The notes beneath the pieces are model-generated. The model was not told the origin of the DNA. It ran no database searches and saw only the letters and a program-made list of their open reading frames with translations. From the NCBI GenBank assembly GCA_030609775.1, contig JAUWTD010000001.1, forward strand, positions 1 through 58,575: 58,575 bases of DNA, read 5' to 3'. Origin of the DNA: Candidatus Altiarchaeota archaeon (GTDB lineage: Archaea > Altiarchaeota > Altiarchaeia > IMC4 > QMZM01). Position 1 is the stretch's first letter, and each line of letters opens with the position of its first letter. This document shows positions 4,467 to 56,869 of this stretch, one piece after another. The position numbers were made by a program, and so were the translations under genes.

Positions 4467-6644
4467 ATGCAAAAAACATTAATTCTAATATTTTCTTTGA
4501 TATTGTTACTGCAAACAAACACTGCAGAAGACAGCTTCCAGCAGAGCATAGACGAAATCGGTTTACTGTGGACATATAAAGCAGGAGACAGCATAACCGC
4601 CCAGCCCACGGTCGCAGACATAACAGGAGACAACCGAAAAGAAATACTCTTCGGATCATGGGACGGCAAACTATACACACTAGACACAGACGGAAACATG
4701 CTGTGGACCTACCAGACAGGGAACAGCATAAGCAGCCAGCCCACGGTCGCAGACATAACAGGAGACAACCGAAAAGAAATACTCTTTGGATCATGGGACG
4801 GCAAACTATACACACTAGACGCAGACGGAAACACCCTGTGGACCTATGAAACATGTGGACGCATAACCAGTCAGCCAACTATACTATACCCTGCCGCCGA
4901 CCCAGTCCACAACCAGAGAATGGAGATAATATTCGGATCATGGGACGGCAACCTATATGCATTAAACGCCCAAGGAGAAAAAACGTGGAGCCATGCAACC
5001 TTAGGAGAGATAGAGCACAGGGCAGTTGTTGCAGATGCAAACTATGATAAACGAATGGAAGTAATATTTGAATCAAATGACAACAGCATATATGGAGTAG
5101 ACCACCTCGAAGAAAAAACATGGACCTACCAGGCAGACAGCGACATAGTGTCTGCTCCGGTGATTGAAGATTTAGATAATAATGGAAGAAATGAAATAAT
5201 CATCGGGTCACGGGAGGGAGGAATATATTGTTTAGACTACAGCGAATACGAAAAACAAACCGGCACAAAATGCACGATGCTTAAATGTGTTCCGGAATAC
5301 ACTACTTATGCATCAATCACGCAAAGATGGAATCACCGAATAGAAGAAGAACAGATTGATTCATTAACGGCAGCAGACCTAGACAACGACGGACAATTTG
5401 AGATAATCTATAGCATGATACACTGGGACCGCCACATAATCGACCAAGGCATCCGCATACTAGACAAAAACGGAGACCTCATAAAAAAATACACAACCAA
5501 CGGACGCATAACTGCTCAACCAGAGATTGCAGACCTAGACGGAGACGGATTCCCTGAAATAATCACTGGAACAGACCGAGGCATAATATACATACTAAAC
5601 GCTGCAGGAGATGCCCAGTGGAGCTACAAGATAGATGCACCAATCAAGGCATCACCTATAGCTGCCGACCTAAACGGCGACGGCGCACTAGAAATAATCG
5701 TAGGCTCAGATGACGGCAGACTCTACGTATTCAGCTCAATTAAGGACTCAGACGGAGATGGACTACGGGACTGTGTAGAATACCTGATGGGAACCAACCA
5801 AACAGAATACGACACAGACGGAGACGGACTAAACGATTCAAGTGACCCGCATCCAATAGAACACGAACTAACACTAATAGACTCAGACCAAGACGGACTA
5901 AACGACTACGAAGAAGGGATACTTAGAACCAATATATACAGCAGTGACTCAGACGGAGACGGACTAAACGATTCAAGTGACCCGCATCCACTAAAACACG
6001 AATTAACATTCATTGACTCAGACCAAGACGGACTAAACGACTACGAAGAAGGGATACTTGGAACAGATACACACAATAGTGACACAGACGGAGACGGACT
6101 AAACGATTCAAGTGACCCGCATCCACTAAAACATGAATTATCATTCATTGACTCAGACGGAGACGGAGTAAACGACTACAAAGAAGGAATACTTGGAACA
6201 GATATACATAGCGGTGACACAGACGGAGACGGATTAAGTGATTCAGTTGACCCGCATCCACTAGAAGATGAATCCATAATTGTGCTATATCGTAGTGGAT
6301 CAAGTAATCCAAAACAAAACGACTCAGATGGTTTGCCGGTGATACTTTTTGCAGCAGGTATGATGGGGTTAGTGATGGTTGCAAGAAAACTAGAAGAGGA
6401 TCCGTCGGTTGCAGAGATGATGCACATAACCCAGAACATAACGAAAACAAAAAAAGAGTTAAGGAACATAGAAAAAAAACTAAACGAAGAAAAAAGAATA
6501 CTACTAGAAAAATACCATGACATAGGTAGAGTAGAGGACTGGCTAAGAGAATTCGACGCAGACATAGAAAAAGAGGTCCATAAAATACTTTTAGAAGAAA
6601 AACTGATGGCGTGGGATACCCTCGTTTGTGAAGAAACCACATAA
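4467..6644 (+). CDS. Large surface protein: signal peptide, PQQ/FG-GAP-like beta-propeller repeats, thrombospondin-type-3-like Ca-binding repeats, TM helix, cytoplasmic coiled-coil tail
   Basis: 725 aa. Repeated motifs are SQPTVADITGDNRKEILFGSWDGKLYTLD..DGN.LWTY and ADLDGDG.PEII.G..DG.IY. There are four DxDGDGLNDSSDPHP units. A late hydrophobic helix (LPVILFAAGMMGLVMVA) is followed by a K/E-rich tail. Confidence 0.7.
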   Translation: MQKTLILIFSLILLLQTNTAEDSFQQSIDEIGLLWTYKAGDSITAQPTVADITGDNRKEILFGSWDGKLYTLDTDGNMLWTYQTGNSISSQPTVADITGDNRKEILFGSWDGKLYTLDADGNTLWTYETCGRITSQPTILYPAADPVHNQRMEIIFGSWDGNLYALNAQGEKTWSHATLGEIEHRAVVADANYDKRMEVIFESNDNSIYGVDHLEEKTWTYQADSDIVSAPVIEDLDNNGRNEIIIGSREGGIYCLDYSEYEKQTGTKCTMLKCVPEYTTYASITQRWNHRIEEEQIDSLTAADLDNDGQFEIIYSMIHWDRHIIDQGIRILDKNGDLIKKYTTNGRITAQPEIADLDGDGFPEIITGTDRGIIYILNAAGDAQWSYKIDAPIKASPIAADLNGDGALEIIVGSDDGRLYVFSSIKDSDGDGLRDCVEYLMGTNQTEYDTDGDGLNDSSDPHPIEHELTLIDSDQDGLNDYEEGILRTNIYSSDSDGDGLNDSSDPHPLKHELTFIDSDQDGLNDYEEGILGTDTHNSDTDGDGLNDSSDPHPLKHELSFIDSDGDGVNDYKEGILGTDIHSGDTDGDGLSDSVDPHPLEDESIIVLYRSGSSNPKQNDSDGLPVILFAAGMMGLVMVARKLEEDPSVAEMMHITQNITKTKKELRNIEKKLNEEKRILLEKYHDIGRVEDWLREFDADIEKEVHKILLEEKLMAWDTLVCEETT
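4601..4825 (+). repeat. Near-identical 90-nt stretches at 135-bp (45-aa) period inside the propeller region
   Basis: ccagcccacggtcgcagacataacaggagacaaccgaaaagaaatactct..ggatcatgggacggcaaactatacacactagac occurs at 4601 and again at 4736. Confidence 0.85.
5811..6270 (+). repeat. About 3.4 tandem copies of a 135-bp (45-aa) unit encoding DTDGDGLNDSSDPHP..IDSDQDGLNDYEEGILGT
   Basis: The unit starts gac(a/t)cagacggagacgga at 5811, 5946, 6081 and 6216, an exact 135-nt spacing. Confidence 0.9.
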
Positions 6645-47137: not shown

Positions 47138-47722
47138 ATGAAAAAACTAATTGTTGTTGCCCTGCTTTTATTGGTTTGCGGATGCATAGGAGAAGAAAAA
47201 ATCGTATGCAATAAACCCTACATACAGGTCGGAAGGGATTGTTGCCTGGATACAAACGATAATAGGATATGTGATATACACGAGGCAACCACCCCAACCC
47301 CAACCACAACAACCACAACCACCACAACAACCACAACAACCACAACAACCACAACAACCACAACAACTACTTTAGGGATTCCTGAATCCTGCCTGGATGC
47401 ATTCAAGATAGTAAAGGAACACCCATACATTGATTCACTAGTTGAAGACAATAGATGTGATCCCTTCACATGGGATAGGGTTGGTCCGATGATCCGATTA
47501 AAGGATTGGACAATTGTTGAGTGCTCAGAGGGAGGAGTAGATAAGGATTTTTGTATGGACTCTCAAATAGGTGAAAAAGCAGGTGAAAGCGAAAAAGACG
47601 ATATAAGGAGGCTGTTTGGAAGAGAACTAGGAGACTTCTATGTCTTCACATACCAATGTGATATCATATCGCGTTTTACATTATTTTTGGATTCAGATAC
47701 TTTAGAGATGGCCAACCTTTAG
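47138..47722 (+). CDS. Lipobox/poly-Thr secreted protein, tandem paralogue 1
   Basis: 194 aa, beginning MKKLIVVALLLLVCGCIGEEKIVCNKPYIQVG, with a run of about 26 Thr/Pro residues. The C-domain is shared with 47762..48283. Confidence 0.6.
   Translation: MKKLIVVALLLLVCGCIGEEKIVCNKPYIQVGRDCCLDTNDNRICDIHEATTPTPTTTTTTTTTTTTTTTTTTTTTTTLGIPESCLDAFKIVKEHPYIDSLVEDNRCDPFTWDRVGPMIRLKDWTIVECSEGGVDKDFCMDSQIGEKAGESEKDDIRRLFGRELGDFYVFTYQCDIISRFTLFLDSDTLEMANL
47288..47371 (+). repeat. ACN-codon microsatellite (aca/acc units) encoding the poly-Thr tract
   Basis: acaaccaca-type units are reiterated over about 84 nt. The paralogue 47762..48283 has only 4 Thr at the same point. Confidence 0.85.
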
Positions 47723-47761: not shown

Positions 47762-48283
47762 ATGAAAAAATTAGTTGTTGTTGCTCTGCTTTTATTAGTC
47801 TGCGGATGCATAGGAGAAGAAAAAATCGTATGCAATAAACCCTACATACACGTTGGCAGCAATTGTTGCCTGGATATAAACGATAATATGATATGTGATA
47901 TAGATGAGGCAACCACTACAACCATACATGATATGCCCAAATCCTTCCAGGAGGTATTTAGAATAGTAAAGGAACACCCAGATATTGAGTTAATAGTTGA
48001 AGACTATGGCTGCGACCCCTTCACATGGGATAGGGTTGGCCCGATGATACGGATAAAGGATTGGAAGGCGGTTGAGTGCTCAGACGGAGGCTCAGACGAA
48101 GATTTTTGCAGCGACTTTACAAAAGGAGACGACGCAGGTGAAAACGAAAAAGATGACATAGAAAAACTGTTTGGAAGAGAACTTGAAGACTTCTATGCCT
48201 TCAGATACCTATGCAAGGAGAGAGTGGAACTGGTAGTATTCCTAGACCCCTCTACAGGAGAAATAGCCACATTGAGACAATAA
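47762..48283 (+). CDS. Lipobox secreted protein, tandem paralogue 2 (short Thr tract)
   Basis: 173 aa. The N-terminal 30 aa are nearly identical to paralogue 1, and the C-domain is collinear (IVKEHP.I...VED..CDPFTWDRVGPMIR.KDW..VECS.GG.D.DFC). Confidence 0.6.
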   Translation: MKKLVVVALLLLVCGCIGEEKIVCNKPYIHVGSNCCLDINDNMICDIDEATTTTIHDMPKSFQEVFRIVKEHPDIELIVEDYGCDPFTWDRVGPMIRIKDWKAVECSDGGSDEDFCSDFTKGDDAGENEKDDIEKLFGRELEDFYAFRYLCKERVELVVFLDPSTGEIATLRQ

Positions 48284-48538
48284 ATTCCACAATTGCAGAG
48301 TAAGAGATTACCCACAAAAAAAAAAAAATGTAAACAGATCATAAACACAACATACAACCAATCATCGCCAAGGCTTGATGACACCAAAATATAAAAAAAA
48401 AGGTTAGTGTAAACAGATAGTATCATCGTTAACGTTTGATGACACCTAAAATAAAACAGAATAATAGAAAAACTGTTGCAGTGGGGCTAAGCGACAGCGT
48501 ACGCCCCACCTGTTTTGATCAAACTTTTCTTAAAAGTT

Positions 48539-48622
48539 TGCGGGGGAAGGGATTCGAACCCTCGAAGGTCTACACCACAGGATCTTAAGTCCTGCCCCTT
48601 TGGCCAGCTAGGGTACCCCCGC
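48539..48622 (-). tRNA. tRNA-Leu (anticodon UAA), class II with a long variable arm
   Basis: Reverse complement: gcgggggta-ccct-agctggccaa-aggg-g-cagga-ctTAAga-tcctg-tggtgtagaccttcga-gaggg-ttcgaat-ccctt-cccccgc-a. The 7-bp acceptor stem, GGTTCGAATCC T-arm and 84-nt length fit. No CCA is encoded. Confidence 0.85.
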
Positions 48623-48706
48623 AAAAGAGGAAATTGAATTTTTTTTTGATTGAATGTGATTTGTTTTGGGGATGCAACACCTTTTTCTAAAGGGGGTTGC
48701 AATCCA

Positions 48707-48737
48707 GCCCCTTTGGTCAGCTAGGGTACCCCCGCAA
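48707..48737 (-). other. Partial duplicate of the tRNA-Leu 5' portion (nt 1-29 plus 2 upstream nt)
   Basis: gcccctttgg(t/c)cagctagggtacccccgcaa at 48707-48737 versus 48594-48624: 30 of 31 identical, offset 113 nt. Beyond it the sequence diverges and no 3' half follows. Confidence 0.8.
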
Positions 48738-48980
48738 CCCGCGAAATCGGTTGACGTTTTGTGTCCGTCTTTGCCTTTTGGCTCGACAAGACTGTTTTCG
48801 AGGTTGTGTTCTTATAATATAGAGTTCGCATTAAAAAACGGGGAAACAAGAGCAGGGAGGCATGAAATCTGCGGCTTTAGTTCACCTGTTTTTCTGAGTA
48901 GAATATATCAGAGAAGATGATCGAAAAGGAGAGATAAAGATAGGGAAAAGAATCTCTGCAATTCAACTCACTGCTCCGGG

Positions 48981-49033
48981 AGATGGCCGGAGAGTGGGAG
49001 GGCTATGGTCTCGACGGCGAGGATGAGAAGGCA
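48981..49033 (+). repeat. Degenerate direct repeat Y, copy 1 (left of the AbiE module)
   Basis: agatggccggagagtgggagggctatggtctcgacggcgaggatgagaaggca versus 50756-50807 agatggcaggcgaatggcaggccatgaccacgacagcgaggatgagaaaaca. Roughly three quarters identical, with one 1-nt indel. Confidence 0.6.
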
Positions 49034-49076
49034 GGTAATGAGTGGGGTGGGGGATGGATGAATGAATAAAGGCAAG

Positions 49077-49133
49077 TTATATACTTGTAATTTAAATTAT
49101 ATGTATATACATTTTATATACTTATGATTTAAA
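49077..49133 (+). promoter_or_regulatory. Two 20-nt direct repeats immediately upstream of abiEi (candidate operator/promoter)
   Basis: ttatatacttgtaatttaaa (49077-49096) and ttatatacttatgatttaaa (49114-49133), the latter ending at the ATG. The function is inferred. Confidence 0.4.
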
Positions 49134-49763
49134 ATGAGTTACGCCTTGTTAGTCAAGAAAATAGAACGAATGGGGGGAAAATACCTCACCCGAAAAGAGC
49201 TGAAATCGTTCACAGACGAATTAGGTTTAGGTTATCGTCCAGCCATAGGCTACCTGAACACATACAAATACATTATAAGGATTATTCGAGGGATTTTTTA
49301 CGTCAAAACCATTGAAGAACGAAAACTAGATGCTCTGAAGATAAATTATCTCGAAGCCATAAAGGAGGCTTTAATTATGAAGAAGGTTAGTAACTGGTAT
49401 TTCGGACTCGAAACAGCATCCTCCCTAAATAATCTAACCCACGAATACATTCCAACAACATCTGTTATATCTGATACCCTCGGCAGGCCTAAACCATTTG
49501 AGATATTGGGCCATAAAGTCAAGTTCATAAAAGTGTCAAAGAATCTCTTCGGTTTTGGGGTTGTTAAGGGAGATATTCCCTACTCCGACCCAGAGAAAAC
49601 AGTCCTTGACATGATATACCTCGGCAAATACAATAGTCTAACAGAAGCAGAGATAATAGGCAAGATCGCTGACTTGACAAAATATTGCTCCAAAGAAAAA
49701 ATGGAAGCCTATGCCGACAAGTATCCGAAGTCGGTGAAAAAGGTTTTGGAGAAGCTAAAGTGA
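49134..49763 (+). CDS. AbiEi-family antitoxin / transcriptional regulator
   Basis: 209 aa. N-terminal wHTH-like region with LTRKELK...Y.....YL...YIIRIIRGIFYV (the l.Ri.RGvY pattern). Directly followed by an AbiEii gene. Confidence 0.65.
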   Translation: MSYALLVKKIERMGGKYLTRKELKSFTDELGLGYRPAIGYLNTYKYIIRIIRGIFYVKTIEERKLDALKINYLEAIKEALIMKKVSNWYFGLETASSLNNLTHEYIPTTSVISDTLGRPKPFEILGHKVKFIKVSKNLFGFGVVKGDIPYSDPEKTVLDMIYLGKYNSLTEAEIIGKIADLTKYCSKEKMEAYADKYPKSVKKVLEKLK

Positions 49764-50683
49764 AAGTAACAAAAGAACTGGTTGATTATCTGGCAAGTAA
49801 GGCAGACGTCAAACAGAGGGAGCTGATAGAAAAAGACGCATACCTCCACCTGCTATTGAAAGAATTAAACTCAGACGACCACTTCAGGAACAATTACGTG
49901 TTTAAGGGTGGAACCTGCCTAATAAAGTGCTATATAGGCTACTATCGGTTCAGCGAAGACCTTGATTTCAGCTACATACGACAAGAAGATTTCAAAGACA
50001 AATCCGAAAAAAAGATACGGAAACAATTATCTGAGGAAATAGGTGAGTTCACAAGGAAACTGGAGAGAATAACCGATAGAATAGGTATCGACTTCAAGGC
50101 GCACAAGGAAGACCCCCACTACATTGAATTCGGCGGCAGCAACAAGTTCGTCACATTCAAATTATGGTACACCTCCATTGAACTGAAAACCACACAGTTC
50201 ATAAAGATACAAGTCAACTACGTTGAAAAATTCAATTATGCATTCAAAACCGTGGAGGCGAAAAACATCCTCACAGGAATAGATGCCAAGGAATTCAGGT
50301 TCCTGTACCCGGAAGCTGCAGAAACCCTGCTGAAAAACCCTAAGGTCAAAGCATATGATATAAGAGAGATACTAGCCGAAAAAGTAAGAGCCATTCTCAC
50401 AAGACAAGGAATAAAAACCAGGGATTACGTCGACATTTACATGATACAGGAACACACCGAATTCAAGCCAGACGAGATGAAAAACACGATACTTGAAAAA
50501 ACAGAGTTCATGCTCAGATACGAAAAATACCAGAGGAACCTGCTAAAAAAAGTCGAAGAAGAACCAAAATACCGGCCTGGCGAAGAAGAAAGACTGATGA
50601 TCAAACCACTGGATAAATACTTCCCTCATAAAACAAAGAAACTAGAAAAACTCATACATGAACTCGCAAACCAACTGGTGTAA
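49760..50683 (+). CDS. AbiEii/AbiGii-family nucleotidyltransferase toxin
   Basis: YVFKGGTCLIKCYIGYYRFSEDLDFSY is the family signature (FKGGTAL...RfSeDlDF). The start is placed at GTG 49760, a GTGA overlap with the abiEi stop. The ORF-track ATG at 49685 is an alternative. Confidence 0.8.
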   Translation: MKVTKELVDYLASKADVKQRELIEKDAYLHLLLKELNSDDHFRNNYVFKGGTCLIKCYIGYYRFSEDLDFSYIRQEDFKDKSEKKIRKQLSEEIGEFTRKLERITDRIGIDFKAHKEDPHYIEFGGSNKFVTFKLWYTSIELKTTQFIKIQVNYVEKFNYAFKTVEAKNILTGIDAKEFRFLYPEAAETLLKNPKVKAYDIREILAEKVRAILTRQGIKTRDYVDIYMIQEHTEFKPDEMKNTILEKTEFMLRYEKYQRNLLKKVEEEPKYRPGEEERLMIKPLDKYFPHKTKKLEKLIHELANQLV

Positions 50684-50755
50684 AACATCCAGTTACCCTA
50701 ACACACAGTGGAAACCTTAGCAGTAAAGCCTCGCCTTTTAGTATGATGCTTCAGA

Positions 50756-50807
50756 AGATGGCAGGCGAATGGCAGGCCATGACCACGACAGCGAGGATGA
50801 GAAAACA
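50756..50807 (+). repeat. Degenerate direct repeat Y, copy 2 (right of the AbiE module)
   Basis: See 48981-49033. Confidence 0.6.
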
Positions 50808-50905
50808 TACAAGGGGGGATAATGGAAAAGGAGAAGGAAAGGGAAATAATGAGGCTTGAAAGACTATAGAGGGAGCAGTATCTGAGATAGATCGACTTAG
50901 GGTTA

Positions 50906-51394
50906 TTAATGGATGTTTTTGATTCTTTTCTGCAGGTCTTCTCTGATATCTTGTGTCTCTTTTTCAGTTATTTCAGCGAGGATCGTTTTGCATTTCAAAT
51001 GGAAGTCCAAAGCGGCATCAGTCATCTCTTCGCGTGTTTTGTCGTCTAAGCCGGTCTCACAATAGTATTGAGCCTCTATTCGAGCAGAGCAGGAGTCTTC
51101 AAGAAGCCTTATCTCGTCAGCGGTGAAGTGTTTGCTCAGGTAGACCTGCATAAATTCCAACGTACAGGAATGTATCTCACATTTGACGCCCAACCTCATG
51201 AGTATCGCATACAAGCTAAAATACATCGCGTAGTAGCTGGATGATATCTCCCATTCCGGATTATCTGCGTTGGCTCGCATAGACGCAAGAGCATTCTCCG
51301 CCTTTACGAGATACGCACGGCTCAGGTTTTCACTTAATTTCACAAGCTCCATGCCCCTCTTCTGCCTCAGACACCACCGTATCTTATCTGCCAT
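50906..51394 (-). CDS. HEPN-domain protein (toxin partner of the upstream MNT)
   Basis: 162 aa, all-helical. A..A..SM......EW.ISSSYYAMYFSLYAIL...G.....H and SARIEAQYY (the R-x3-a-x-Y HEPN variant). 11-nt overlap with the MNT gene. Confidence 0.65.
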   Translation of the reverse strand: MADKIRWCLRQKRGMELVKLSENLSRAYLVKAENALASMRANADNPEWEISSSYYAMYFSLYAILMRLGVKCEIHSCTLEFMQVYLSKHFTADEIRLLEDSCSARIEAQYYCETGLDDKTREEMTDAALDFHLKCKTILAEITEKETQDIREDLQKRIKNIH

Positions 51395-51980
51395 AGTAGT
51401 CGCCTAACACAAGCTCCAGGTACTCTTCCGTGCCTCGCAGGATGATGTGATCTGAAACCACCTCCCTGATAAAAATGTCCTTCTCCTTCAACGCCTCCCT
51501 GAAGTTTTCCCTACTCATCTGCTTGACGTTTAAATCCATGCCATAAAGTCTGGCTGCTTCCCTGAGTTTAAGGGCATTATATTCCCCTGCAACGAAGACA
51601 TCCAAGTCAGAATCCTTTTTCTGGATCCCTTTAGCATAACTACCAAACACCATAACTATCCCGCTGAAAAACGAACTTGTCTTGGAGAAGACTTCCTTGA
51701 CCCTAAGGTTCCCTTCCAGAAAACATAGAGTTCGCGCGTTCTCCACACCCAGAAGGAACCGCCGAGTCTTCTCCAGGTCATCGAAGCGGAGCCTGAACTC
51801 CTTATTCTTGCCGACTGTGCTGCTCCTAAGGAAACCCTCATCCTCCAGCCGGTTAAGTACGTTGGAAACAGTTTTCTGATTAAGCCCGCTAGCCTTAGCT
51901 ATGGCGCTGCCATAGTAGCTGCCGCTTAAATCACGTACAAAATGCTCCATCACCTGCAATACAACACCATTAAATAACAT
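51384..51980 (-). CDS. wHTH-fused minimal nucleotidyltransferase (MNT antitoxin-type)
   Basis: 198 aa. N-terminal wHTH (IAKASGLNQKTVSNVLNRLEDEGFL), then VMVFGSYAKGIQKKDSDLDVFV (the GS-x-a-x-G...D-x-D motif). Confidence 0.75.
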   Translation of the reverse strand: MLFNGVVLQVMEHFVRDLSGSYYGSAIAKASGLNQKTVSNVLNRLEDEGFLRSSTVGKNKEFRLRFDDLEKTRRFLLGVENARTLCFLEGNLRVKEVFSKTSSFFSGIVMVFGSYAKGIQKKDSDLDVFVAGEYNALKLREAARLYGMDLNVKQMSRENFREALKEKDIFIREVVSDHIILRGTEEYLELVLGDYYGR

Positions 51981-52046
51981 CTTACTTACATAAGTATAAG
52001 ATTACTACAATAAAAAAAACAACAACAACCAAAAGGTTAGCATCAT

Positions 52047-52119
52047 ACACAATGTTATCATTCAATAAAGCGTGAATTGATTCTCGGTCGCGTGTACGGC
52101 AGGGACAGAAGCAGGGTAT
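52047..52119 (+). repeat. Direct repeat X, copy flanking the 3' side of the Fic gene
   Basis: The core gtgaattgattctcggtcgcgtgtacggcagggacagaagcagggtat (52072-52119) matches 53529-53576 at 44 of 48 positions. Weaker similarity extends about 25 nt upstream (acacaatg..attcaa). Confidence 0.8.
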
Positions 52120-52179
52120 TTCACTGCAAGATAAAAGAATCTTTTGAAATAAAGAGTGAGAGCGGGCGTAGGAGCGAGG

Positions 52180-53376
52180 TTATTGAGTGTGTGTTTTTAT
52201 GTGTTTTTGCATGATTTTTTTGTGTTCGCTGTTGCAGAATTTTATGAATTCCATTGAGTCGGTATTTCTCGCCTCTTCAAGCAGGTTGAAATACTGGTTT
52301 CTTTTATCAGGGTCATAGGCGAACAGAGGCAGATTTTTCTTTAACAGTATCCATGAGTGTAAGAGCCGGGCCATTCTGCCATTTCCATCCTGGAAAGGGT
52401 GTATGCTAACGAACATCAGATGCGCCAGGGGTGCGATAAACAGGGGATTTGATGTAGCGTATTTTCTAATGAAATTTATTAACGCTTTCACTGCCGAATC
52501 CACAACCTCCCTTGAATCAGGCGGCTTGTGTGCTGAACCTATAATCCGTTTCCTGCCGTAATAGTATTCTCCCAGCTTATCCACCAGATTGTTCATGAGT
52601 ATAGCATGCAACGCCAAAAGCTTCTCTTCAGACACATCATCTTTTGAATACTGGAGTAATCTCTCCAATGCCTTCTCTGTATTCACTATCTCTATCACCT
52701 CATGAGGGGTTAGTTTAACTGGCCGGTTCTCCAATACTTTTTGAACATCCTCTTCGATTGCCGTATTCCCTTCAGTTACTGTAGTAGAATACGTGTGCAG
52801 CCGGATCAAGTCTTGCATCAGCTTCTCAGAATGCACCTCAAACATAGGTTCTAAAGGATGTTCTTTTTCATATTCGCTGAAGCTTAATTCCAGATGGTTT
52901 ATGTAGTAAAGTGTGTGGTCGTTGATATTAACCTCCAAAATCAATGGTTTTTCTTTCACTTTACTCAAGAAACCGTTTTCTAATAGTATGTGAACATACC
53001 TTAGTGTCGTGGGCTTCGACTTTTTCAGTTGACCCATCAGATCATTTAAGGTTTTCTTACCATCCAGGACTGCACCAAATAATGTGGAAACTCCCTTACC
53101 TAAGAGAATGTTGTAGTCCCTGTTCTTGAGGATACTCCAATAAATGAAAGCCAACATATCCCACAAACGAGAGTTATCGGCGTTAACCTCCAAAAGACCG
53201 CACTTCTCTAGGACATATCTTTGATTTTTTAGAACCCGTATCCGCGCATAGACTAGTCCACTAGTTATTTTCTCAAATCTGGCGTCACCCCTAACCAATT
53301 TGATGAAAGATTCTCTGTCAATCTTGCCTGCATGACATAATTTCAACAAAACATCGTATTCAGTTAATTTAACCAT
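52180..53376 (-). CDS. Fic-family protein (AMPylase-type motif) with a long N-terminal wHTH-like region
   Basis: HPFQDGNGRMARLL is the canonical HxFx(D/E)GNGRxxR Fic motif. The start is set at ATG 53376 (MVKLTEYD) because a TATA-like tttaaata box at 53403-53410 would overlap the GTG at 53400, which suggests a leaderless mRNA. Confidence 0.8.
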   Translation of the reverse strand: MVKLTEYDVLLKLCHAGKIDRESFIKLVRGDARFEKITSGLVYARIRVLKNQRYVLEKCGLLEVNADNSRLWDMLAFIYWSILKNRDYNILLGKGVSTLFGAVLDGKKTLNDLMGQLKKSKPTTLRYVHILLENGFLSKVKEKPLILEVNINDHTLYYINHLELSFSEYEKEHPLEPMFEVHSEKLMQDLIRLHTYSTTVTEGNTAIEEDVQKVLENRPVKLTPHEVIEIVNTEKALERLLQYSKDDVSEEKLLALHAILMNNLVDKLGEYYYGRKRIIGSAHKPPDSREVVDSAVKALINFIRKYATSNPLFIAPLAHLMFVSIHPFQDGNGRMARLLHSWILLKKNLPLFAYDPDKRNQYFNLLEEARNTDSMEFIKFCNSEHKKIMQKHIKTHTQ

Positions 53377-53498
53377 ACCATGATATATTAAAGAAAACAC
53401 ATATTTAAATACAATTATCTGCTATAAAATACCAAAAAATTTTACTATAGTAAGGTATAATAACATTTTTAACAATTACAGAAAACCCGATAAAAAAA

Positions 53499-53576
53499 AC
53501 ACAATGATTCAAAAAAAAATGAAAAGCTGTGAATTAATTCTCGGTCGCCTGTACAGCAGGGACAGAAGCAAGGTAT
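53499..53576 (+). repeat. Direct repeat X, copy flanking the 5' side of the Fic gene
   Basis: See 52047-52119. Confidence 0.8.
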
Positions 53577-53624
53577 GATTTATTCTGTTAAATAAATGCG
53601 TCGCCAAATAAATAATTGATACTA

Positions 53625-54692
53625 ATGGAGTCCAAGATAAGGGAATTAATTGATTCAAGCCGGAGGGTGATTTTAGATTGCTGTCTTGAGAATGGGGCTA
53701 TTGTTGCTGCGAATTGTGTGAAACCCTATTATCCACGTGATGTGAAAAACTATTTTTATGTGTGGCCAAGGGATGCATCCTACACGTGCATGGCAGCAGA
53801 TGTTTTAGGTTTAGATGATGTAGCTGAGAGATTCTTTGATTGGATTATAGACCGAGCCGAAGGATGGCAGGAAACGGGTTTACTTTATGAAAAATATTAT
53901 CCCAACGGATTAAAGGCTTTAAACCGGTTCCAGCCAGACCAGACCGGGACACTGCTTTACGCTGCAGGCTGCCACTTTAAAGATAAAAAAATGCCTGACA
54001 GATACAGGAAACTGGTTACTGATTCGGCTGAAGGATTATGCCGAGTATGGAATAAAGACCACTTCACAGAAATTACAAACGATTTATGGGAGGAAAGGCT
54101 GACGTTCCCCGACCTCAAAGAAAACTTCTCTTATTCTCTTGCAGCGTGCATAGGCGGCCTGATATCTGCAGACCAGATACTTCCCAATGAGAGATATGTG
54201 AGAACCGCAGACGAGATGAAGAAGACATTATTGGATAATGCAGAGGAAAAAGGTTTTTTTCAGCGGTCTTTTGGCAGATTAGATGATGCGAGAATAGATG
54301 CCAGCCTTTTAGGGGTGATATGGCCTTTTAGGGTGGTTGATGCAGATAATCCCTTAGCTAAACAGACTGTAGGATTGATCGAAGAAAAACTCGTCAAAGA
54401 TTATGGAGTCTATAGATACGAGAACGATGAATATGATGGATGGATCCTTGAAGGATTACATAGAAACAAAGGCGCCGGATTCTGGCCTCTTCTAAATTAC
54501 TGGATGAGCACTATATTAAATATGATGGGTGAAAAAGAGAAGGCTAAGAGATACTATTGGAAGGCTGCAGAATCATCAAGTGAATACATACCTGAACAAG
54601 TATTTGATAACAGAATACAGAAATCAGTATGTCCCCTGTGCTGGAGCCATACGATGTTTGTTCTAGCGTCAAAGGAGCTTGAGTTAATATGA
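53625..54692 (+). CDS. Glycoside hydrolase family 15-like protein (glucoamylase-related catalytic domain only)
   Basis: About 355 aa with YVWPRDASYT, NDLWEER and YENDEY.G......GAGFWPLLN.WM, consistent with the GH15 (alpha/alpha)6 domain. Confidence 0.7.
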   Translation: MESKIRELIDSSRRVILDCCLENGAIVAANCVKPYYPRDVKNYFYVWPRDASYTCMAADVLGLDDVAERFFDWIIDRAEGWQETGLLYEKYYPNGLKALNRFQPDQTGTLLYAAGCHFKDKKMPDRYRKLVTDSAEGLCRVWNKDHFTEITNDLWEERLTFPDLKENFSYSLAACIGGLISADQILPNERYVRTADEMKKTLLDNAEEKGFFQRSFGRLDDARIDASLLGVIWPFRVVDADNPLAKQTVGLIEEKLVKDYGVYRYENDEYDGWILEGLHRNKGAGFWPLLNYWMSTILNMMGEKEKAKRYYWKAAESSSEYIPEQVFDNRIQKSVCPLCWSHTMFVLASKELELI

Positions 54693-55423
54693 TATGCGAC
54701 TTTGAGTTAAGTGACAGGGTTAATAAGGATATAGGCGAGAAAAAAATCATCTCTATTGTGTGTGAATGCAGCATAGAATACAGTGGACGATCAAAATCAC
54801 AGATAGGGACAGGACACCGCATAATATTGATTAAACAGGATTCCACCTTACTGATACATGGATTATCAGGGTATAAGCCCATAAATTGGATGAGTCCGCC
54901 GATGGAAACTGTAGCAGAATTCAGCGAGGAACTTCTGTTATACAGCCAGAGGACAAAAAAACCCTTTGAAGAGATGAGGATAAGGGTCCATAAGGTGCTG
55001 AATTATCAGGCATATTCAGACCTAAGAGATGGAAGTAAGCTTTCTGTAACACACACAGAAAAGGATCTGCAGGATTACCTAGTCAAGAATCAGGAATTGG
55101 TGCATCCCAGCTTCCGGCTTAGGAAAGCAGAATATAGCACACCACTTGGATACTTTGACTTATATGGCAAGGTAGGTGACACCTATGTTGTAGTTGAGTT
55201 AAAGGCTGAGAGGGCAGGGTTACCTGCCGCATTACAGATTAAGAGATACACTGAATGGCTCAAAGAGCATGTGAATCCTGCACGAGGGATCCTCGTAGCC
55301 CCAAGCATAACACCAAATGCTATGCTAATCCTCAACAAAGCAGGGATAGAATACAAAAAAATAGATATAAAAAAAATAGAAGTCAAACATAGAAAAGAGA
55401 AAACACTCAATGAATGGTGCTAA
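54689..55423 (+). CDS. nucS: Endonuclease NucS/EndoMS
   Basis: 244 aa. N-terminal beta-domain, then YFDLYGKVGDTYVVVELKAERAGLPAALQIKRY (RecB-like D...E-x-K core). ATGA overlap with the GH15-like gene. Confidence 0.85.
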   Translation: MICDFELSDRVNKDIGEKKIISIVCECSIEYSGRSKSQIGTGHRIILIKQDSTLLIHGLSGYKPINWMSPPMETVAEFSEELLLYSQRTKKPFEEMRIRVHKVLNYQAYSDLRDGSKLSVTHTEKDLQDYLVKNQELVHPSFRLRKAEYSTPLGYFDLYGKVGDTYVVVELKAERAGLPAALQIKRYTEWLKEHVNPARGILVAPSITPNAMLILNKAGIEYKKIDIKKIEVKHRKEKTLNEWC

Positions 55424-55431
55424 AAAAAAGA

Positions 55432-55992
55432 TTAGATTACTGCACCAATCTCTATAATAGCCTTCTTTGTTTTTTTGGCTGCCTGATCTACATCATCACG
55501 TGTTTTAGCCCCGGTTATTATCAGTTTCCCGGATCGGAAGACAAGCATTACAGTTTTTGGCTCAGCTAAGGAGAACACTAGACCAGGGAACTGCTCTGGC
55601 TCATATTCCGTATTATCGCATTCCATTGCAAGAATATCCAAATTAACAGTCATTTCCATATCAGCTGATGCAACAATATTCTGAACCTTGACGTCGGGTT
55701 CTTTTTTGACTATTATACCTCCTTCAGCAAGCTTCTCTTTTAACTGCACCACAGCCGCCTTAATGTCTTCTTTAGATCTTGCACCTGCACAGATTATCTT
55801 ACCTGAACTGAAGATAAGCATCGCCATCTTAGGATTTTTTATCCTGTAAACCGCACCAGGAAACCTATCAGGATTATATTCTAGACCTTTAACTGTCGTA
55901 GTGAATTCCTTCATATCTATCTTTTGATCTATTGTTACTGCAGAAACCATGTTCTCAATCTTAGGTTTAATCCCCATTTTCATACGCCTCAT
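55432..55992 (-). CDS. tbp: TATA-box binding protein
   Basis: 186 aa with two direct repeats (IENMVSAV..EYNPDRFPGAVYRI..PK.A.LIFSSGKI.CAGA and VQNIVASA..EYEPEQFPGLVF.L..PK...LVFRSGKLIITGA). Confidence 0.9.
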   Translation of the reverse strand: MRRMKMGIKPKIENMVSAVTIDQKIDMKEFTTTVKGLEYNPDRFPGAVYRIKNPKMAMLIFSSGKIICAGARSKEDIKAAVVQLKEKLAEGGIIVKKEPDVKVQNIVASADMEMTVNLDILAMECDNTEYEPEQFPGLVFSLAEPKTVMLVFRSGKLIITGAKTRDDVDQAAKKTKKAIIEIGAVI

Positions 55993-56047
55993 ACATAAAT
56001 AGAATTAAAGCACAAAACTAAAAGAATCAGTTTTTTAAACAAAAAGA

Positions 56048-56869
56048 TTATATTGACATTACAATGTCATCTATCTGTTTCTTATCCCACCGGAGAAAGT
56101 AGTCTTGGTTGCGTGGCATCCAGCCTTCTATGATCATGTATCCATCATATGGATTCAATGCATGTATGAATTTTTTGAAGTCTATGTTCCCAAGACCGAT
56201 AGGTAGATGATCATCTACGCCAGTGTTATCGCTGATGTGAACGTGCGCAACATAATCCTTTAGCTCCTCTGCAAAATGGTCAGGGCTTAAGCCGGTGGTG
56301 TTTGCGTGTGCAGCATCCAGACAGATTTTGAAGTGATCAGAGTCAACAAGATTACATATATAAAGTATCTCCTTTATGTGGACACACAATGCTGTCGGCT
56401 TTGATGATATATTCTCCATGCAAAGCTGGACGCCAAAGTCTTCTGAAATCTCAGCTAATCTCTTGAAGTTTTTGGCCATTATATTCAGGATACGGTCTTT
56501 GAGGTATTTCCTTGATGCCAGATGACCTGGGTGGACTACGACAATATTAGAGTTAAGATAGTTTGCAGTCTCAATGCATTCAGATATCTGGTGCATTACC
56601 TCTTTTCTAACCCCTAGATTTAGTGTAGCCAAGTTTAGGTCATGGTAGGGTGCATGCAAGGACACACCAATATCCAGGGTACTTAAGGTATCATAGATTT
56701 TCTCTTTGGTCTCCTTTGCCTTCAATGTCCCCCAACCTTTAAACAACGGGCTCTGGCAATGAATCTCTGCGCACTCAAACCTAAGATCATCTGCTAGATG
56801 CGACAGAACATATTCAATATCCAGTTTTTCATAGTCCCAGAATATCTGGGTTGAGATGCCAAGTTTCAT
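56048..56869 (-). CDS. Sugar phosphate isomerase/epimerase (xylose isomerase-like TIM barrel)
   Basis: 273 aa with the HAPY, VVVHPG, LCMEN, DAAHAN and HISDN ladder typical of the AP_endonuc_2/TIM-barrel family. Confidence 0.7.
   Translation of the reverse strand: MKLGISTQIFWDYEKLDIEYVLSHLADDLRFECAEIHCQSPLFKGWGTLKAKETKEKIYDTLSTLDIGVSLHAPYHDLNLATLNLGVRKEVMHQISECIETANYLNSNIVVVHPGHLASRKYLKDRILNIMAKNFKRLAEISEDFGVQLCMENISSKPTALCVHIKEILYICNLVDSDHFKICLDAAHANTTGLSPDHFAEELKDYVAHVHISDNTGVDDHLPIGLGNIDFKKFIHALNPYDGYMIIEGWMPRNQDYFLRWDKKQIDDIVMSI

Follow-up and report, generated by a model that had tools for sequence, protein, structure and literature searches.

Sequence duplications around single defence-gene units in an archaeal island beside tRNA-Leu: possible scars of successive insertions

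How is a defence island put together when it encodes nothing that could move its genes, and can the order of events still be read from the DNA between them? This question is raised by a stretch of 58,575 nucleotides (the window; contig JAUWTD010000001.1, assembly GCA_030609775.1, Candidatus Altiarchaeota archaeon), in which an AbiEi-AbiEii pair, a HEPN-MNT pair and a Fic gene lie between tRNA-Leu(UAA) and the genes for GH15 and NucS. The original prediction had described these as three modules of an integrase-less island, with AbiE and Fic bracketed by the degenerate direct repeats Y and X, respectively. The genes were confirmed using Pfam and PADLOC, with a weak match in the case of HEPN, and no recombinase family was found in the window, of which the description as integrase-less is therefore true. 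The reading that we prefer, and to which we would give roughly an even chance, is that the island is a decayed mosaic that arose from successive insertions at a tRNA-linked hotspot, in which the repeats are scars of target DNA that were likely left by single crossovers. That the three defence and toxin gene units beside tRNA-Leu were acquired separately is supported by the evidence presented below. The coordinates of the features are collected in Table 1.

The similarity between the copies of both repeats proved significant in a formal alignment. For Y, which does bracket the AbiE pair, blastn gave 78% identity over 58 nt (48972-49029 versus 50747-50803; E 5e-7), and the repeat grew to approximately 87-91 nt once it was aligned with homologous genes. 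These genes encode proteins of 187 aa, which belong to an uncharacterised family with no sequence match in Pfam, PHROG or PDB. The first relic of such a gene, to the left of the AbiE unit, has frameshifts, one stop codon and an internal deletion; a tblastn search with the 187-aa proteins of contigs L042 and L039 matched residues 127-145 at 48947-49003 and then continued in another frame to 49034. Its N-ward part, which corresponds to residues 46-83 at approximately 48771-48881, reached a score of 52 against a shuffle mean of 23.8 and was equalled by one of 500 shuffles. The open reading frame (ORF) over the nearby partial tRNA copy (48666-48920) is partly this relic. The second relic, to the right of the AbiE unit, carries an in-frame stop and a frameshift, and its end abuts the HEPN stop codon. 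It was matched by tblastn over residues 132-154 (FSTMMRKMADEWEAMVETARLRR) at 50737-50805 (61% identity) and over residues 161-181 at 50825-50887 (E 1.3e-5), while blastn aligned 50737-50891 with L042 7818-7665 (E 6e-8) and with contig L054 (E 3e-6). In a multiple alignment, relic 1 tracks the gene to approximately residue 155 and then diverges, and relic 2 starts at approximately residue 127 and reaches the end of the gene. Because the two relics overlap in this alignment, Y appears to be the stretch that two pieces of a single decayed gene of the 187-aa family have in common, with the AbiE unit between them. Such an anatomy is that of an insertion which duplicated approximately 87 nt of its target (residues 127-155).

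In the case of X, the core is 44/48 identical between its two copies (E 4e-13 in a blastn search against the window) and has sharp edges, so that the bracketing of Fic stood for the core. The claimed extension to approximately 75 nt fared less well; the additional 27 nt or so to the left look homologous in a three-way alignment, with GCTTT, TTGAAT and CATTGTGT in the same order, but taken alone they did not rise above shuffles. The third sequence of this alignment is contig L045 (ERZ25073490; 1331 nt), which carries the closest MNT homologue (92% protein identity). It is 91% identical at the DNA level to window 50897-52031 and, beyond a small indel, has an X-like sequence at the equivalent place 5' of MNT; L045 67-148 aligned with the reverse complement of 52036-52112 at approximately 73% identity, with a local score of 66 against a shuffle maximum of 32. 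The homology ends within approximately 7 nt of the outer edge of X (52119), and the remainder of L045 had no similarity to the sequence next to X1 towards Fic or to that next to X2 towards GH15. At two well-aligned positions at which X1 and X2 differ, L045 agrees with X1 and not with X2. Because L045 has an X-like sequence in the same place and its homology ends there, X1 is the outermost part of the upstream flank that belongs to the MNT-HEPN unit itself. In the more distant MNT loci (78-80% identity; L046-L052), homology was lost at 52017-52031 and X was absent. Neither viral contigs nor JGI metagenome contigs contained an exact 24-base pattern from X.

The Fic unit, by comparison, has limits that were constant in five contexts (window 52194/52202 to 53448/53466). 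Its DNA homology in L039-L042, L053 and L054 comprises the ORF and approximately 70-90 nt upstream and never covers X. Since X1 belongs to the MNT-HEPN flank and the Fic unit never includes X, X2, which lies beyond Fic, is a duplicate of the end of the MNT-HEPN unit. X was also considered as a coding relic, and this was rejected; tblastx gave only noise (best ELILGRVYGR versus ELVLGDYYGR of the MNT C-terminus, E 1.6) and the substitutions between X1 and X2 showed no coding constraint. X and Y are unrelated in both sequence and origin, and the proposal that a single ancestral X...Y segment was split up several times is therefore without support. The traces that had suggested it, one X-like (48824-48864) and one Y-like (52158-52178), scored at or below the shuffle mean and are noise, and a position-aware retest of 52120-52182 against the 3' ends of the 187-aa family was also not significant. 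A third relic of the 187-aa gene beside the Fic stop codon (52154-52179), colinear with L054, was rejected for the same lack of significance.

X might instead be no scar at all, but a cis element, such as an operator or an upstream promoter element, that is selected for the MNT and Fic genes, both of which encode a winged helix-turn-helix (wHTH). Its minus-strand position upstream of both MNT (-92) and Fic (-153) would suit this, as would a short palindrome, GAATTnATTC, which is perfect in X2, and the retention of an X-like sequence 5' of MNT in L045. An element of 48 nt at 92% identity with sharp edges, however, is far beyond the length of an operator, and in L045 the X sequence is less conserved (73%) than the neighbouring unit (91%). 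Moreover, it is absent 5' of MNT in L046-L052 and 5' of Fic in four other contexts, and it has neither a significant fold nor an Rfam match. We consider this explanation very improbable.

A cassette array of the integron type is a further alternative, in particular a cluster of attC sites lacking integron-integrases (CALIN) with X and Y as the attC sites. Integrons have been described in Archaea (PMC9668308). Single-module toxin-antitoxin (TA) or defence cassettes that lie between repeats and have no local integrase are what such an array would look like; a search of the island genes, of 30 other window ORFs and of the Pfam lists of the neighbourhood gave no IntI-type tyrosine recombinase, which a CALIN would not need. 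We searched for attC sites as pairs of R'' (RYYYAAC) and R' (GTTRRRY) that are 55-140 nt apart with imperfect inverted-repeat arms. There was none in 48624-53625 on either strand, with 1.3 expected in shuffles, and the single-strand DNA folds of X and Y were not better than shuffles in both copies (z-scores -0.5 to -1.9; a lone hairpin at -3.0 is missing from the other copy). In addition, Y is a coding sequence and X the flank of a unit, and the genes are in mixed orientation with their own promoters. With the defining features of attC absent, the attC/integron reading was rejected and we would give it next to no chance. The original prediction had already recognised no known att or cassette site in the repeats, and this holds.

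Whether the units travel on their own can be judged from their relatives. The closest Fic homologues (73-77% protein identity) occur in unrelated contigs, and the relatives of both Fic and MNT-HEPN lie in unrelated neighbourhoods with sharp homology boundaries. The relatives of the modules are closer than those of the backbone (MNT 92%, Fic 77%, GH15 at most 69%); the GH15 relatives, which were searched for in species-representative genomes and in a set of 5.8 billion proteins, were in addition not syntenic. Taken together, these comparisons indicate that the Fic and MNT-HEPN units are independently mobile. Contigs L051 and L052, which carry MNT homologues, provide a further single-gene swap within a module; here, the interior of HEPN (window 50984-51368) is replaced by approximately 1 kb that bears a gene for a 234-aa methyltransferase-like protein.

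The closest Fic homologues stand tail-to-tail with the 187-aa gene in three lineages (L039/L040/L041, L042/L044 and L054), and where the contig reaches further, i.e., in L039-L042, paralogous genes for proteins of 126-135 aa follow the 187-aa gene. Two observations bear differently on the order of arrival. The duplication of X fits an insertion of Fic into the MNT flank, while the pairing of Fic with the 187-aa gene fits an insertion of MNT-HEPN between these two. A search for the 187-aa family in metagenome contigs returned just the two lineages that were already known and in viral contigs none; viral contigs also held no relatives of AbiEii.

The contigs with the closest Fic homologues also contain the same kind of duplication. 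In L042, three direct copies of the 3' end of the 187-aa gene (5549-5632, 6249-6328 and the end of the intact gene) bracket a gene for a 70-aa protein and Fic, with residues 159-186 or 171-184 duplicated. In L039, a 256-nt direct repeat, 87-91% identical, starts at the 5' end of an intron-containing tRNA-Leu(UAA), i.e., in the upstream flank of the tRNA, and brackets a gene for a 227-aa protein, next to which comes Fic; in L039/L040 this tRNA lies approximately 2 kb from the closest Fic homologue. The tRNA itself (L039 5818-5947, which equals L040 1706-1838) has an intron of approximately 46 nt after the anticodon loop, was missed by ARAGORN, and has exons that are 95-97% identical to the intron-less tRNA-Leu of the window. 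The second copy of the 256-nt repeat is abutted by an eight-codon relic (MKQSNWKG; L039 7350-7373) of the N-terminus of the 187-aa family, which is on the strand opposite to the intact copy. L039 and L040 are identical over 11.4 kb on the tRNA side of the tRNA 3' end and unrelated beyond it, a difference that reflects an integration polymorphism or else a chimeric assembly at the tRNA. In approximately 400 kb of unrelated GH15 loci, few such direct-repeat pairs were found and those that were inspected turned out to be paralogues or promoter copies. The Woesearchaeota-type contigs L012 (9007-9065/11132-11190) and L013 (4438-4496/6570-6628) have 59-nt repeats, 90% identical, that bracket GH15; these are the promoter and start-codon regions of paralogous genes for proteins of 110-113 aa and hence a different phenomenon.

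Where the duplicated stretch lies and how long it is (35-256 nt) changes from one event to another, which fits a homology-driven crossover better than a fixed site. This also bears on the claim of a serial site-specific insertion of single modules, each duplicating its target. The arrival of the modules one by one, with two of them flanked by a duplicated target, was borne out; the site specificity was not, as a different part of the 187-aa gene was duplicated in L042 and the upstream flank of the tRNA in L039.

Variable duplications of local DNA may also point to something new, i.e., a process of cassette capture in which long staggered nicks followed by fill-in repair would yield target-site duplications of 35-256 nt. 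The machinery would perhaps be the small, putatively DNA-binding proteins of 187, 134 and 135 aa or an enzyme that is encoded elsewhere. This proposal would explain why the duplicated DNA is always local target and never cassette-borne, why each insert is a single gene or operon, 0.6-1.7 kb long and sharply delimited, and why the pattern recurs in three unrelated contigs, clustered at the 187-aa gene and tRNA-Leu, with no known recombinase nearby. Against this, no motif is common to the junctions of the seven repeat-flanked inserts and no inverted repeat is common to them either; the lengths of the duplications spread sevenfold, there is no candidate enzyme (the 187-aa protein being without a database match), and the events are just a handful. 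Such a new process is improbable in our opinion. The statement that within a group of uncultured archaea single defence genes are captured beside this DNA-binding family and tRNA-Leu(UAA), leaving duplications of 35-256 nt with no cassette-borne site and no nearby recombinase, we likewise regard as distinctly doubtful.

The main rival to successive insertions is a tandem integration followed by deletion. Related elements that share a backbone (the 187-aa gene and an X-type leader) and differ in cargo (AbiE, MNT-HEPN or Fic) would have integrated in tandem at tRNA-Leu and then suffered internal deletions; the repeats would be leftover pieces of the backbone, with no duplication at insertion. 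The starts of the relics are scattered (residues 46, 109, 127 and 159), as random deletion endpoints would give, and cargo always abuts the end of the 187-aa gene, i.e., Fic in L039, L042 and L054 and HEPN in the window. This rival would also account for the last bases of L045 past the HEPN stop codon, which match the tail of relic 2, for the colinear, non-significant trace of a 187-aa gene 3' end beside the Fic stop codon (52154-52179), and for the partial tRNA copy, which would mark a past integrase activity. It requires, however, more events than a single insertion, and relic 1 must have lost residues 156-187 too. The short overlap of the relics (approximately 29 of 187 codons) would be a coincidence, for which our rough estimate is that it would be fairly unlikely to arise. 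Moreover, no X-like leader was found 5' of Fic in L039, L042, L053 and L054, and the window contains no remnant of an integrase. On balance, we hold tandem integration to be somewhat unlikely, though a serious contender.

Returning to the successive insertions, the history of the island could be reconstructed as follows. The oldest recognisable layer would be the small gene of the 187-aa family. The AbiE unit may have entered its 3' part, duplicating the stretch that is now seen as Y, and both pieces of the gene would later have decayed. The MNT-HEPN unit would have been placed against the end of the old 187-aa gene. The last 48-75 nt of its upstream flank would be X1, with the Fic unit between X1 and the copy X2. 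With Y as a gene overlap and X1 as a unit flank, X and Y can be read as scars of local DNA; the comparisons consistently indicate that the repeats are target-derived, i.e., pieces of the DNA at each insertion point, with no dedicated recombination site. The mechanism of insertion we only infer. It would be a Campbell-type single crossover of a small circular DNA via a short shared patch, possibly catalysed by the host homologous recombination or by an integrase acting in trans. An archaeal integrase, Int-pTN3, is documented to recombine any two homologous sequences down to a length of 104 bp (PMC5495485). A unit that is flanked by repeats could in turn be excised as a circle with one repeat, which would be able to enter genomes that have that sequence.

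Several observations weigh against this history. Neither an empty site nor a circular junction was seen, and the only close relative, an assembly 99.8% identical to the window, has the identical island. For a RadA-type recombination, a patch of 35-90 nt is short, and the copies of Y, at 78% identity, are too diverged for a present-day recombination, which implies either an old event or two source genes. The limits of the AbiE unit are defined by homology to the 187-aa family, no comparable AbiE locus having been obtained. X is absent 5' of Fic in the other Fic contexts, and a Fic circle with an X patch is hypothetical. Finally, at other loci the 187-aa gene is usually paired with Fic, which fits an insertion of MNT-HEPN between them and would leave X2 unexplained.

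Further observations concern the border of the island with the tRNA gene. A partial copy of the tRNA, which the original prediction had overlooked, comprises the acceptor strand through the 5' strand of the anticodon stem and lies 79 nt upstream of the real tRNA-Leu; ARAGORN did not call it as a tRNA. No copy was found near the GH15 border. The close relative mentioned above is the NCBI contig JAIWBX010000063.1, which comes from a different assembly of the same population. It has 161 extra nt at the 3' end of tRNA-Leu that are bounded by 87-nt repeats (85/87 identical), and this repeat-flanked indel is a live polymorphism. The extra segment (window 48463-48549; L035 4681-4928) consists of 74 nt and a second 87-nt copy, to which the final 12 nt of the tRNA belong; the 74 nt look like a divergent repeat of the 74 nt before them, with a degenerate T-arm-like sequence inside. 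The island (48785-56151) is identical in both assemblies. An assembly artefact was considered for the repeats and rejected, as the copies of X and Y differ (by 8% and 22%, respectively) and two independent assemblies agree over this whole interval. The differences between the assemblies cluster on its two sides, i.e., at 48686-48784 beside the tRNA half-copy (three 1-nt indels and five or six substitutions) and at 56152-56261 within an AP-endonuclease gene (seven single-nucleotide polymorphisms in 110 nt). Both clusters look like recombination tracts, and the island between them has none. Downstream of tRNA-Leu, a hairpin-like sequence, ATCATCGnnAAnGnTnGATGACAC, followed by an A-rich run is repeated at 48361-48400 and 48422-48461, with a third copy in L035 (4806-4830); the motif has no Rfam match.

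How the locus compares with known systems depends on the feature that is considered. It resembles the archaeal elements that integrate into tRNA genes using SSV-, pNOB8- or pTN3-type tyrosine integrases in that it abuts a tRNA with a 35-nt partial copy, has direct repeats that are tens of nt long, carries accessory defence or TA genes and is visibly decayed. Unlike these elements, it lacks any integrase gene, whole or fragmentary, its partial tRNA copy lies close to the tRNA (79 nt away) rather than at the far end, the inner repeats are not tRNA-derived, and the bracketed units are a single gene or operon of 1.4-1.7 kb. With integron arrays and CALINs it has in common the single-gene cassettes, often TA, that are separated by repeats, and with CALINs also the lack of an adjacent integrase; it differs from them in having no attC structure or core sites, in repeats that are pieces of local genes or flanks, and in the mixed orientation of genes with their own promoters. 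As in a Campbell-type integration, an insert lies between two diverged copies of a patch that is single-copy in related contexts, and a loss mediated by the repeats would be predicted, for which the 161-nt polymorphism may be compared. The patches of 35-90 nt and the circles, which were not observed, differ from the usual form of this process, which is usually described for plasmids and engineered constructs and not for natural archaeal defence-gene cassettes. In the case of DDE transposons and insertion sequences, a short and fixed duplication of 2-15 bp would be expected, whereas the duplications in the window are variable and 35-91 nt long; no inverted repeats were found at the ends of the inserts and no transposase in the window. 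Finally, the island is like other defence islands and TA hotspots in that known families (AbiE, HEPN-MNT and Fic/SoFic) cluster by a tRNA with a patchy distribution that resembles horizontal gene transfer. Unlike in the usual defence islands, its individual insertion scars are still readable, and these are long duplications of target DNA.

Table 1. Features of the island and its borders (positions in the window)
Feature	Position	Strand	Basis or remark
tRNA-Leu(UAA)	48538-48623	-	left island border; ARAGORN, Rfam tRNA 57 bits
Partial copy of tRNA-Leu 5' half	48703-48737	-	33/35 identical to 48590-48624, E 2e-8
Relic 1 of 187-aa-family gene, residues ~46-155	48771-49034	+	tblastn, shuffles, DNA alignment
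Repeat Y1	48944-49034		last ~90 nt of relic 1
AbiE unit	49035-50721	+	edges are the points where 187-aa-family homology ends (alignment)
Palindrome inside AbiE unit	49078-49109		repeat scan of window
AbiEi	49134-49763	+	PADLOC 2.6e-51
AbiEii	49760-50683	+	Pfam 7e-31; PADLOC 1.4e-67
Relic 2 of 187-aa-family gene, residues ~127-181	50722-50905	+	tblastn, blastn, alignment
Repeat Y2	50722-50808		first ~87 nt of relic 2
HEPN	50906-51394	-	weak Pfam match (0.0016)
wHTH-MNT	51384-51980	-	Pfam Polbeta, NTP_transf_2, MarR-like HTH
Repeat X1 (core 52072-52119)	52047-52119	+	outer end of MNT-HEPN upstream flank
Fic unit	52120-53498	-	gene and own conserved upstream region to ~53449-53466
wHTH-Fic gene	52180-53376	-	Pfam Fic 5e-16; PADLOC SoFic 1.9e-30
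Repeat X2 (core 53529-53576)	53499-53576	+	ends 49 nt before GH15 start codon
GH15, 355 aa	53625-54692	+	Pfam; right border; opens housekeeping block GH15-NucS-TBP

The genes of the island show the features of their families to different degrees. AbiEi (in this family a wHTH antitoxin) and AbiEii (a nucleotidyltransferase toxin) overlap by 4 nt and, as an adjacent pair, form an AbiE (type IV TA, abortive infection) system. The AT-rich palindrome with 18-nt arms lies 25 nt 5' of the AbiEi start codon and is plausibly an operator for the autoregulation of AbiEi, a putative role. MNT has the GSx10DxD nucleotidyltransferase motif (GSYAKGIQKKDSDLD) at residue 113, and its match to the NCBIfam MntA model was far below the cutoff. 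The Pfam match of HEPN is also below the cutoff and, of the Rx4-6H RNase motif expected for the HEPN partner of a type VII TA pair, its sole Rx4H is at the extreme C-terminus; the G+C content of HEPN-MNT is modestly higher. The Fic protein has an active-site motif (HPFQDGNGRMAR) at residue 326 that agrees with the HxFx(D/E)GNGRxxR of Fic/DOC AMP-transferases, and an internal [ST]xxxE[GN] match, TTVTEG, at residue 198, which we take to suggest self-inhibition rather than a two-gene TA system. The search for recombinase and transposase families was negative in the island, in the 30 further ORFs of the window and in precomputed Pfam lists of the neighbourhood, and no Phage_integrase or SSV-type match was obtained in the window. 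An Rfam scan returned the tRNA as its sole match and no other RNA gene.

The remaining content of the window (FTR, an archaeosortase, a V-type ATPase, NucS and TBP) is that of an uncultured archaeon, and several top protein matches were labelled by their sources as Altiarchaeota or other DPANN-type archaea. Two tandem paralogous lipoprotein-like genes (47138-47722 and 47762-48283; 77-89% identical at the DNA level) lie on the other side of tRNA-Leu, and the first of these encodes a run of approximately 25 threonines that its paralogue does not have. An A/T-rich stretch just upstream of tRNA-Leu (48638-48666) resembles, in inverted orientation, 53492-53520 just left of X2 (83% over 29 nt, E 0.003-0.009); this likeness is of low complexity and probably due to chance or promoter-like sequence.

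Defence islands are usually given as lists of genes, and here the readable scars show how an island was assembled. The locus exemplifies, in readable form, a decayed defence hotspot linked to a tRNA. What is less ordinary about it, and recurs elsewhere, is that long stretches of local sequence are duplicated around units of a single gene, with no recombinase nearby. One of the targets lies in a small uncharacterised gene, at its 3' end, and this end is duplicated around inserts in another metagenomic lineage as well. If the pattern is not wider than this, the island would be an integration hotspot of the ordinary kind, decayed and located at a tRNA gene. The cassette-capture proposal, if true, would make it a gene-cassette platform that is functionally analogous to an integron and mechanistically unrelated to it. 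If the pattern is wider, a gene bracketed by diverged copies of the neighbouring sequence would be a searchable signature, and it may represent a recombinase-independent or trans-acting route for the shuffling of defence genes in archaea with small genomes.

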